A stretch of 51,628 nt of DNA, from the NCBI GenBank assembly GCA_016188495.1, contig JACPHU010000005.1, positions 1 through 51,628 on the forward strand. The letters are read 5' to 3'. The translations under genes and the position numbers were made by a program. This DNA comes from Candidatus Uhrbacteria bacterium. GTDB taxonomy: Bacteria > Patescibacteriota > Patescibacteriia > UBA9934 > GWF2-40-263. The notes under the pieces are model-generated. The model was not told the DNA's origin, did no database searches, and worked only from the letters and a program-made list of their open reading frames with translations. Below are positions 30,986-38,403 of this stretch, in pieces (positions within the stretch are counted from its first letter, which is position 1; each line of letters opens with the position of its first letter).

Positions 30986-32143
30986 ATGCCTACCTCCACC
31001 CTGTGCACTAACCTGCGTACCTCCCTTGAGACCATCCGTGCTCTCAAAACGGACTTTGACGCAGCCTATGAAGCAGCAATCTCTTCCGGTACCCCTGCTG
31101 AGATACAAAAAGCTCAAGATCTCAAACAAGCTCTTGAAACACGTACCCGAGAACTTCAACAAGAAGTGAATGTTCTCGAAACAGAGCGCGTCTATGACCT
31201 AAGAGCCCAGTATGAGAGCCAAGTGACGTTACTCAAGCGTACAGGACTGATTGAAACAAGAATCTTTATAGAGACTGGGGAAGAAACAGAGGAGTTTTTC
31301 ATGAGAGATCTTCACGAGCATGATTACCCAGTTCCATCTTACGAAACGATCGTAGAGCATCTGGTAGAACGGAAGGAATTCCTTGCAAGCAAAGCCGACC
31401 AAGGGTTCACGAAGTTCCTTCTGGTTCCCTTTGGGATGAGTCTGGACCAGATGATTCAGAGATTCAGAGCGTTTCTGTTGGACTATAAGAAAGACCATCC
31501 AGAGTTTGGTCGTCATGACCCTGCAAAAAGAGATGATTCAGACAAGCCGGACTGGGATCCTATATGGGTGTGGGAGGGGTATGATAACGCAGATGTAAAA
31601 GGCACTTTGGTGTATGATCCTCAGTCTTTTGACGAGGAAGATCATAATGGTCTCACCAAGACAGAGATTCTTGAAAGGCAGAAGACCGATCAAGACCCAA
31701 TGTTTGGATGGCGTTTCTTGTTCTTGCAAGCAGGCAGGGATGGGAACGGATTCAAGGTGATTCCAAGAAATGGTCAAGGTGAGACCCAAGGTGAACAAGT
31801 TCCGCGTGGAGATTTAGAAGCAGGAAAGAGTTCAAAGGAGTACTTGGCAGACCAGCTTCGCACCTCCCAAGACCCCACCTCCCCTTATTATGGTGAGTCT
31901 GGGATGGCTCCTGAGGAGTGGATGGTGATGTTTATGAGCTATCTACAGGAAACAGGGAGACCTTTGGATAACTACCAAAACGATACAGATTCTATTGTTT
32001 TCCTCACAGGGACTTATTTTATTGCTTCTGGCAATGTCCCGTACGCGTGCTGGTACCGTGGCATTCGGCAGGTCGACTTGGGCGGGAACGGTCCGGGCGA
32101 TGTTAGCGAGTACACCAGTGCGCGTGGTGCGGTGAGGGGATAG
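30986..32143 (+). CDS. DGR-target-like protein, paralog 1 (coiled-coil N-terminus, variable C-terminus)
   Basis: 385 aa from ATG 30986 (MPTSTLC). It is homologous over its full length to 37249-38403, and its last 39 codons are rich in NNC/NNT and end GTGAGGGGATAG. Confidence 0.88.
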   Translation: MPTSTLCTNLRTSLETIRALKTDFDAAYEAAISSGTPAEIQKAQDLKQALETRTRELQQEVNVLETERVYDLRAQYESQVTLLKRTGLIETRIFIETGEETEEFFMRDLHEHDYPVPSYETIVEHLVERKEFLASKADQGFTKFLLVPFGMSLDQMIQRFRAFLLDYKKDHPEFGRHDPAKRDDSDKPDWDPIWVWEGYDNADVKGTLVYDPQSFDEEDHNGLTKTEILERQKTDQDPMFGWRFLFLQAGRDGNGFKVIPRNGQGETQGEQVPRGDLEAGKSSKEYLADQLRTSQDPTSPYYGESGMAPEEWMVMFMSYLQETGRPLDNYQNDTDSIVFLTGTYFIASGNVPYACWYRGIRQVDLGGNGPGDVSEYTSARGAVRG

Positions 32144-32177
32144 TCTTGGTTTTTATCTTTTTATTTCCTACTTTGTT

Positions 32178-37224: not shown

Positions 37225-37248
37225 GTCCCAATCGATCAAAACCCAACC

Positions 37249-38403
37249 CTAACCCCTCACCACTACACGGAGACCCATGATCTTATCTTCAACGAAGGGA
37301 ACGAGCCCGTTCAAGGCGACCTGCGAAAAGAACTGATCCCATCCACTGGACGGGACGCTACTATAAGATTTTAAATAAACCCCTGTGAGGGAAGCAACGG
37401 ATTCTGTATTCTTTCGGAAATTATCCATGGGTCTTCCTGTTTCCTGTAAATGACTCATGAACATCACCATCCACTCCTCTGGAGTCATTCCAGACTCACC
37501 GTAGTAGGCAGAGGTGGGGTCTTGGGAGGTGCGAAGCTGGTCTTCCAAGTATTTTTTTGGACTCTTGCCCGTTTCTAGATCTGTACGTGGGAGCTGTTCG
37601 CCTTGGATCTCTCCCTTGCCTTGCCTTGGAATCTCCTTGAATCCTGTCCCGTCCTTGCCTGCTTGCAGGAACAAGAGACGCCATCCAAGTGTTGGGTCTT
37701 GGTCGGTCTTCTGCCTTTTAAGAATCTGTGTCTTGGTGACTCCACCATGGTTTGCGTCAAAAGATTTTGGGTCATAGATCAGAGTCCCATTCACGTCCGT
37801 TCCTATATATACATTATTCAACATCGACAGAGGATCCCAGGATGATTGGTCTGACATTGTTAGAGAATCAACACGATCGAACTCTGGATGATCTTTCTTG
37901 TAATCTAAAAGAAAGACTCTAAATCTCTGAATCATCTGGCCCAGACTCATTCCAAAGGGAACCAGAAGAAACTTGCCGAAGCCTTGGTCGGCTTTGGTGA
38001 AGAGAAATTCTTTTTGTTCTGCCAGACGCTCTACGATCGTTTCGTAGGATGGAACAGGGCATTCATTACCATGGATATCCTTCATGAAGGAGACTTCTGT
38101 TTCCTTTCCCATCTCATCTAATTCTATCTTTGTTTCAATCAGTCCTGTGCGCTTGAGTGACATCACTTGGCTCTCATACTGAGCTCTTAGATCATAGAGA
38201 TGCTCTGCTTCGAGAACATTCACTTCTTGCTGAAGCTTTTGGGCACGTGTTTCAAGAGCGTGTTTGAGATCTTGGGCTTTTTGTATCTCAGCAGGAGTAC
38301 CGGAAGACATGGCTGTTTCATAGGCTGCGTCAAAGTCCGTTTTGAGAGCACGAATGGTCTCAAGGGAAGATTTAAGGTTGGTGCACAGGGTGGAGGTGGG
38401 CAT
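37249..38403 (-). CDS. DGR-target-like protein, paralog 2
   Basis: 384 aa from ATG 38403 (MPTSTLC), with TGTTAAAAT extended -10 ten nt upstream. It is a full-length paralog of 30986-32143 with a divergent last 39 codons. Confidence 0.88.
   Translation of the reverse strand: MPTSTLCTNLKSSLETIRALKTDFDAAYETAMSSGTPAEIQKAQDLKHALETRAQKLQQEVNVLEAEHLYDLRAQYESQVMSLKRTGLIETKIELDEMGKETEVSFMKDIHGNECPVPSYETIVERLAEQKEFLFTKADQGFGKFLLVPFGMSLGQMIQRFRVFLLDYKKDHPEFDRVDSLTMSDQSSWDPLSMLNNVYIGTDVNGTLIYDPKSFDANHGGVTKTQILKRQKTDQDPTLGWRLLFLQAGKDGTGFKEIPRQGKGEIQGEQLPRTDLETGKSPKKYLEDQLRTSQDPTSAYYGESGMTPEEWMVMFMSHLQETGRPMDNFRKNTESVASLTGVYLKSYSSVPSSGWDQFFSQVALNGLVPFVEDKIMGLRVVVRG

Follow-up and report, generated by a model that had tools for sequence, protein, structure and literature searches.

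The question raised by this locus is whether two proteins with hypervariable C termini work together with the enzyme pair encoded between them. The window analyzed is an entire 51.6-kb contig (GCA_016188495.1, contig JACPHU010000005.1, positions 1 to 51,628) of Candidatus Uhrbacteria bacterium, whose genome (1.19 Mb, 96.4% complete) is labeled G000 here. Four genes make up the locus: var1 (30986 to 32143, + strand, 385 amino acids, aa); a gene for a transglutaminase domain fused to a C-terminal von Willebrand factor A domain (TGase-vWA; 32178 to 34850, +, 890 aa); an AAA_5 ATPase gene (AAA; 34878 to 37175, +, 765 aa); and var2, an inverted paralog of var1 (37249 to 38403, −, 384 aa; inverted repeats I1 to I3). 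The first three are separated by only 34 nt and then 27 nt. On balance, and with doubt not far behind, we favor the view that the locus descends from a Patescibacteria family of diversity-generating retroelement (DGR) cassettes, that it has lost its reverse transcriptase (RT), and that its lectin-fold domain acts in concert with a vWA-thiol enzyme and an AAA+ ATPase of the midasin/MoxR clade.

In other Patescibacteria, the var family is a genuine DGR target family, as proven by pairs of template repeats (TRs) and variable regions (VRs). These pairs were sought by self-comparison for imperfect repeats with mismatches at the adenines of one copy. Mismatches fell at template adenines in 19 of 20 and 22 of 22 cases in genome G335, in 18 of 20 cases twice in G324, and in 18 of 23 cases in G192, each time beside an RT, and further pairs were found at loci L092, L093, L100, L104, L111, and L118. 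A DGR-type RT was adjacent in G255, G335, G393, G246, G347, G252, and G078. An IGNLTSQ-type motif, typical of DGR RTs, is present in the G255 enzyme (345 aa; PF00078, 6e-18); no TR was found in the 7-kb contig of this locus or in the rest of the assembly despite the RT and the VR signatures. Of the 401 class genomes sampled, 154 (~38%) had an RT of this kind. The var family itself was restricted to Patescibacteria-labeled records, with 46 proteins recovered from 5.8 billion searched, and the relatives, where named, are labeled Candidatus Uhrbacteria or Patescibacteria. In the 24 of these 46 proteins that were aligned, hypervariable positions of the C terminus are interspersed in a fixed scaffold (VP.A.W.R..RQ..L....P.......GVR.AVRV). 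Two side observations concern these cassettes. A fragment of a Mutator-family transposase (L068:4765-5580, +) lies between two var genes of the active-looking DGR cassette of G335, and an 888-aa open reading frame (ORF) beside the G324 cassette proved unrelated to TGase-vWA or AAA.

The two genes of the TGase-vWA/AAA pair stay closely together throughout the phylum, in many cases beside a DGR RT and TR. TGase-vWA was present in 17 of the 401 class genomes (full-length in 10) and AAA in 11; the two adjoin in 9 of the 10 genomes with full-length TGase-vWA. A GTDB-wide scan recovered 44 TGase-vWA loci from many Patescibacteria lineages, some automatic labels of metagenome-assembled genomes (MAGs) among them reading Gammaproteobacteria or Bdellovibrionales. 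AAA stands beside TGase-vWA in 37 of these loci, an RT in 19, an adenine-specific TR-VR pair in 14, and at least one DGR feature in 25. In the near group (41 to 74% identity), TGase-vWA precedes AAA, and var-type genes, TR, and RT lie ahead of the two genes or behind them. Two var genes facing each other bracket the pair at four loci, namely, the window, L086, L092, and L102 (the G255 locus). L092 reads var, TR, RT, TGase-vWA, AAA, and inverted var, and its one TR targets both var copies, with 13 of 13 and 25 of 27 mismatches at adenines; at L102, where the DGR-type RT is present, the two var ends are identical but for 16 differences, all inside 71 nt. In the distant group (~30% identity; G246, G347, G252, and L120 to L127), the order is AAA, TR, RT, TGase-vWA, and the VR forms the C terminus of the AAA protein itself, which is 900 to 1,050 aa long. 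The C terminus of the G246 AAA protein aligns to that of var (hhalign probability of 75%, E value of 2.5e-5). Both forms are combined in G078, which encodes TGase-vWA, a small VR protein, an AAA-VR fusion, and a second small VR protein, followed by TR and RT. The main argument that the var lectin, AAA, and TGase-vWA act together is that they are joined in these different ways, including the AAA-VR fusion. The reading of this DNA made earlier from its letters (the sequence-only reading) had placed the adaptors and the AAA+/vWA-TGase in one machine, a claim for which the fusion in distant relatives now argues in part. The co-occurrence across genomes that it proposed to check held insofar as the pair recurs in DGR cassettes with lectin VR proteins; it did not hold for var, which mostly occurs without the pair (~4 to 5 of 18 genomes have both).

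The position of the pair between or beside RT and TR in many cassettes also bears on another explanation, that TGase-vWA and AAA are accessory factors of the retroelement, serving cDNA synthesis or homing, and are not partners of the diversified protein. Lineage-specific accessory genes are described for some DGR classes (PMC5758913; this and the other papers cited are represented here by parts of their text). We regard this explanation as very improbable. The pair persists with invariant catalytic residues where there is no RT (G000, G213, and L086), many var-type DGR cassettes, such as those of G335 and G324, work without the pair, and in the fused type AAA is itself the target protein.

Several further observations were made on these cassettes. 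The small VR proteins of G078 had been considered var-like, but they gave no alignment to the var profile (hhalign probability of 0.3%) and have only the VR in common with it. In L122, L123, and L124 (~5500 to 7700), the C-terminal lectin part of AAA occurs a second time, as an additional gene or domain, with ~1-kb direct repeats of 66 to 83% identity, and in L122 and L124 both lectin copies are VRs of one TR. Repeats also occur beside the pair in L112 (14925 to 18568; ~1-kb units, 70 to 77% identity) and L094 (183 to 1103; ~130-nt units), either tandem or dispersed. Many TGase-vWA/AAA loci lie on contigs of 4 to 7.5 kb (L086, L088, L092, L094, L095, L097, L098, L101, L102, L103, L106, L108, and L113), and L086, L092, L102, and L106 have inverted repeats at both contig ends. 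This suggests that assemblers break at repeated or heterogeneous var genes, and surveys of MAGs will therefore undercount the genes flanking the pair.

The two proteins of the pair were next considered as enzymes. The Transglut_core model (PF01841) matched residues 375 to 488 of TGase-vWA (E value of 1.5e-12; 48.2 bits against a cut-off of 23), and C430, H473, and D495 of this core were invariant in all nine homologues aligned, consistent with membership in the transglutaminase-like thiol enzyme superfamily, whose protease, deamidase, and cross-linker activities are indistinguishable at this level. Toward the C terminus, the residues of a metal ion-dependent adhesion site (MIDAS), D666-x-S668-x-S670 and D797-G798, were likewise invariant in nine of nine homologues; the MIDAS threonine was not evident in the near-group homologues aligned. 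The vWA matches in a PDB profile search were weak (E values of 1e-3 to 5e-3 over the MIDAS region), and none of the Pfam VWA models reached an E value of 0.1 on TGase-vWA. An Atlas structure search returned TgpA-like and CobT-type vWA proteins, which serve as leads only. In AAA, AAA_5 (PF07728) matched residues 253 to 346 (E value of 1.7e-6), and invariant residues across eight to nine homologues comprised G256, G259, G261, and K262 of Walker A (256 to 263), D338 and E339 of Walker B, N379, and R397. Against the PDB, the AAA profile matched Midasin best (3.8e-19), then McrB (4.9e-6), dynein, and NorQ/CbbQ (NorQ, 7e-5), and AAA_3 gave no match to this ATPase. These matches place AAA in the MoxR clade as broadly understood in PMC7159879, defined by the helix-2 insert and including the dynein-midasin proteins, and not in MoxR proper. 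A complex prediction of AAA residues 1 to 765 with var residues 1 to 130 gave a median of 0.20 against a mark of 0.32, which speaks neither for nor against contact. None of the four proteins has a transmembrane (TM) segment or signal peptide: no 19-residue window exceeds 1.3 on the Kyte-Doolittle scale, and the N termini are hydrophilic. Coordinates, alignments, and hydropathy thus agree with the sequence-only reading on gene order, on the two short spacers, on intact Cys-His-Asp, MIDAS, and Walker motifs, and on the lack of TM segments and signal peptides.

The var proteins had no match in a Pfam scan. Var1 and var2 are 68% identical; the best-conserved stretch is the first 275 nt of their genes (89% identical), and the last ~45 codons are the most diverged. 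The AlphaFold2 model of whole var1 (predicted local distance difference test score, pLDDT, of 92.8) begins with a two-helix hairpin at residues 5 to 70. With this whole model, Foldseek gave no match in the PDB at an E value of ≤0.001, and VIA-align in its wide mode matched the N-terminal helical hairpin alone, to generic coiled coils. Since these whole-protein searches were uninformative, residues 86 to 385 were refolded (pLDDT of 84.3) and searched separately. Nearly all of the 50 VIA-align rows then resembled C-type lectins or the formylglycine-generating enzyme (FGE), with Z scores of 4 to 6.9, under the tool's caution line of 8, and with 100 to 156 residues aligned, covering model residues ~40 to 300. 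Matches included an FGE paralogue (1y4j; Z of 6.0) and three DGR variable proteins of solved structure, TvpA (2y3c; Z of 6.7, 156 residues aligned), Mtd (1yu0; Z of 5.4), and TaqVP (5vf4; Z of 4.9). Although the Z scores are modest and the Foldseek search came back empty, the consistency of the match list and the DGR evidence for the var family indicate that the globular part of var is predicted to have the C-type-lectin/FGE (FGS) fold. Like TvpA, Mtd, and TaqVP, var would then carry its variable residues at the C-terminal end of a lectin/FGE-like fold; it differs from them in its low identity (7 to 11%, at Z scores of 4.9 to 6.7), in having its own N-terminal helical hairpin and beta-hairpin, and in lacking a phage-tail or lipoprotein context.

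The mutational footprint of a DGR was examined by aligning the three paralogs of the genome, the VR being taken as the ~117 nt that run up to the shared ...VRG stop. The third paralog (G000:C21:41546-42706; L001:8547-9707), of 66% identity, lies on a separate contig. By this column analysis, VR1 spans 32015 to 32131 (+) of var1, where a conserved GTGAGGGG-type 3' end follows, and VR2 spans 37261 to 37377 (−) of var2, both with approximate limits. Only 43 of the 117 VR columns (37%) were invariant, against 682 of ~1,017 upstream (67%), and adenine made up 4 of the 43 invariant VR columns against 217 of the 682 upstream (Fisher P of 0.001), that is, adenine is depleted. Variable columns were spread over codon positions 1, 2, and 3 as 25, 26, and 23 in the VR and as 91, 73, and 171 upstream, a third-position bias consistent with purifying selection on the var genes outside the VR. 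The VR scaffold of var1 resembles that of L086 (71%, compared with 63% over the preceding 75 nt). The window VRs are therefore assigned as DGR-type variable regions, with an adenine-site footprint at the C terminus of a lectin-type fold. The sequence-only reading had identified the C termini in this way, and family homology, fold, and footprint support it.

Its further suggestions, that a cognate TR and RT might be located and that the adaptors are retro-diversified, fared differently. No RT was found in G000, in a PF00078 search and with the DGR RT P0047 at 1e-20, and an adenine-tolerant scan of the whole genome found no TR for VR1 to VR3. The RT contigs of G213, a genome of the same genus, held no TR for VR1 to VR3 or for the var VRs of G213, and the 34-nt spacer between var1 and TGase-vWA is too short for a template. 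Fixation of the VRs was checked in assembled contigs from public runs of one groundwater study. A single 5,689-nt contig (31852 to 37540) spanning VR1 and VR2 showed 0 differences in runs X1 and X2, and contigs of a third sample were identical over both VRs; run X4, with a small share, gave only short, unlike pieces and was uninformative. Contig breaks fell in the parts shared by the paralogs, not in the VRs. This evidence is weak, since rare variants are hidden in contigs and the assembly itself may derive from two of the runs. With neither RT nor TR in this genome and no VR differences among three samples, the VRs look frozen here and the adaptors would not be undergoing retro-diversification at present, although the family is diversified in relatives. 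The closest relatives are consistent with loss of the mutator: L086 has the bracket without an RT, and G213 has the pair with a var remnant.

Next, we considered how the parts might work. By analogy with midasin, with MoxR-vWA pairs, and with DGR-linked ternary systems, the module is best read as a split sensor (lectin), transducer (midasin-like AAA+), and effector (vWA-thiol enzyme). In midasin and MoxR-vWA pairs, the MIDAS grips an acidic residue of the client and the ATPase pulls. We hypothesize that the lectin tip recognizes a cytoplasmic ligand, the likeliest candidates being phage proteins or other foreign ones, and that the split form relies on its conserved N-terminal helical hairpin to attach the sensor to the ATPase complex, in place of the covalent link of the fused form. 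ATP-driven remodeling through vWA-MIDAS contact may then switch on the Cys-His-Asp enzyme, or feed substrate to it, and the enzyme would cleave, deamidate, or cross-link that substrate. The three paralogs of this genome would serve as hard-wired specificities that outlasted the mutator. More tentatively, and with the odds against it, the same scheme could extend to a phylum-wide, DGR-programmed recognition system of the cytoplasm, running from lectin sensors, which would be free proteins bearing a docking hairpin or parts of the ATPase itself, through a midasin-like AAA+ to a vWA-tethered Cys-His-Asp enzyme. If so, ultra-small bacteria would possess an adaptive-like immune or protein-targeting device, and the window would be an end state, without the mutator but with three hard-wired sensor specificities.

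Several findings weigh against the descent of this locus from a DGR cassette whose lectin, ATPase, and enzyme act together. Besides the lack of an RT and of a TR and the sameness of the VRs in three samples, these include the modest Z scores (5 to 7) of the residue 86 to 385 model, for which Foldseek gave nothing at an E value of ≤0.001, and the PADLOC-DB 2.0 models, which assigned 0 families to var1, TGase-vWA, and AAA. The ligand, the enzyme activity, and the protein contact are all inferred. The var family was present in 18 of the 401 class genomes, and ~13 of these lack the TGase-vWA/AAA pair and have their var cassettes amid housekeeping genes. The third paralog is flanked by a sigma-factor-like gene and the cysteinyl-tRNA synthetase (CysRS) gene, with neither TGase nor AAA as a neighbor. 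Among the 44 TGase-vWA loci, 19 have no DGR feature, 12 of them on contigs shorter than 7.2 kb and 7 with at least 9 kb of sequence. G213 has kept TGase-vWA and AAA with only a var hairpin remnant beside them and no inverted copy, and in G287 TGase-vWA (50% identity) was found without AAA, var, or RT. The remnant in G213, a 214-aa ORF before TGase-vWA (L050:8059-8703, −; G213:C73), keeps the first 62 hairpin residues (48% identity); beyond them it is divergent, which leaves two readings, a hairpin-only partner or a var gene in decay.

A rival explanation is a relic neighborhood, in which var proteins are leftover DGR targets acting alone or not at all, the pair is an ordinary MoxR-vWA chaperone or maturation system, and their adjacency is historical. 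MoxR/DUF58/TgpA operons offer a comparison for such an ordinary pair, and the TgpA-like and CobT-like rows of the Atlas search, leads only, point the same way, as do the occurrence of var mostly without the pair, the solitary third paralog between a sigma-factor gene and CysRS, the loss of var at the G213 locus with retention of the pair, and the retention of TGase-vWA alone in G287. However, many Patescibacteria lineages combine the pair with a lectin VR, and they do so by two independent architectures, a separate var protein and an AAA fusion; the bracket recurs at the window, L086, L092, and L102; and var1 and var2 appear to be under purifying selection outside the VR (91, 73, and 171 variable columns by codon position). 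We therefore consider a relic neighborhood rather unlikely, though it deserves to be taken seriously.

Candidate phyla radiation (CPR) bacteria are episymbionts, and a different role was therefore weighed, in which the lectins leave the cell by a nonclassical route and bind the surface of the host bacterium, with AAA and vWA-TGase assembling or cross-linking them. Transglutaminases are able to cross-link surface proteins, and the window encodes a VirB4/TraG-like ATPase and an M23 peptidase. Host-cell interaction has been proposed for some DGRs of CPR and DPANN organisms (PMC10907252, in the part represented here). However, all four proteins lack a signal peptide and TM segment, the AAA-fused sensors would need to be exported as ~1,000-aa ATPases, and CPR clade 2 targets typically have no TM domains, according to the available text of PMC8144416. 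A function at the cell surface is accordingly improbable in our estimate.

The sequence-only reading had known of no description of this combination, and on that point precedents were found (PMC7159879, PMC10907252, and PMC5758913, each as far as the portion of its text goes). DGR-linked MoxR-vWA systems with peptidase effectors and a lectin sensor have been described (Kaur et al. 2020, PMC7159879; Doré et al. 2024, PMC10907252), and, in the portions of these two papers drawn on, transglutaminase-like effectors are noted as rare in these vWA-MoxR-VMAP systems. The window resembles such ternary systems in its MoxR-clade AAA+, its vWA/MIDAS, its peptidase-type effector, and a DGR-diversified lectin/FGS protein as the proposed sensor. 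It differs in that its vWA forms one protein with the thiol enzyme, whereas theirs is fused to the lectin domain; in that the lectin VR is on a small hairpin-bearing protein or, in relatives, on AAA; in that the hosts are Patescibacteria rather than the multicellular cyanobacteria or gammaproteobacteria named in those parts; and in that the window copy has lost its RT and TR. Pfam and NCBIfam scans of the four proteins gave no match to VMAP-M or VMAP-C, although these libraries may hold no VMAP models; the var architecture differs as well.

In the CPR, DGR targets that join an AAA ATPase and a lectin VR in one protein are reported in the consulted portion of PMC10907252, citing Paul et al. 2017, and "UVR4/Midasin" targets appear in that of Wu et al. 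2018 (PMC5758913). The cassettes of G246, G347, G252, G078, and L120 to L127 are like these targets, with an AAA_5/midasin-like protein bearing a C-terminal VR and followed by TR and RT; in the window, by contrast, the VR domain is split off as var1 and var2. The window also shares an AAA_5-type ATPase and a MIDAS vWA with Midasin/Rea1, RavA-ViaA, CbbQ-CbbO, NorQ-NorD, and CobS-CobT, systems that remodel clients, but its ATPase contains only one AAA module, flanked by long coiled coils, and its vWA protein bears a Cys-His-Asp enzyme. Thus a DGR lectin sensor with a MoxR-clade ATPase, a vWA, and a peptidase, and AAA-lectin DGR targets in the CPR, are already known. A vWA-transglutaminase partner of the CPR cassette was not found in full-text literature searches, though supplements and Paul et al. 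2017 may list it, nor did the portions of the literature searched mention the split hairpin-bearing var sensor, the bracket, or RT-less descendants, for which prior mention is possible.

DGRs are unusually common in CPR bacteria, and the function of their mostly domain-less cytoplasmic targets is called an open question in the part of PMC8144416 used here. One large target group is now tied to a conserved vWA-transglutaminase effector and a midasin-like ATPase, so that every component of the MoxR-vWA conflict systems is represented in it. The idea of the AAA as a signal transducer, put forward in the available text of PMC10907252, becomes testable, with natural split and fused forms to compare, and the window offers a natural experiment on what stays after a retroelement is lost.

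The remaining features of the window concern the surroundings of the four genes. A perfect hairpin (37178 to 37224; inverted repeat I7, 23-nt arms, 1-nt loop, 100% complementary) separates the converging genes AAA and var2 and is likely a bidirectional terminator; in promoter and terminator scans of the window, matches were no more frequent than in shuffled sequence. The surrounding genes are housekeeping genes, including those for GroEL, a release factor, KsgA, and seryl-tRNA synthetase (SerRS). Two of the three var paralogs adjoin aminoacyl-tRNA synthetase genes, the third paralog CysRS and var2 SerRS, which may be coincidence. Immediately upstream, among housekeeping neighbors, is an ORF of 3,323 aa (17220 to 27191, +) with no Pfam match at an E value of ≤0.001. 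A Hanks-type Ser/Thr kinase gene (28966 to 30888, +; PF00069, 4.5e-40) ends 97 nt ahead of var1, is separated from it by a terminator-like hairpin (30900 to 30923), and is not present at the G213 locus. A PADLOC match of this kinase to PD-T4-6 was rejected as evidence of defense, since any Hanks-type kinase would match. The M23 peptidase gene of the window lies at 40148 to 42115 and that for the VirB4/TraG-like ATPase at 48053 to 50197 (+). ATPases resembling type IV secretion system coupling proteins, VirB4, or TraG are also encoded near var or TGase loci elsewhere, at L001:12729-15266 in G000 and at L050:9522-11528 in G213.

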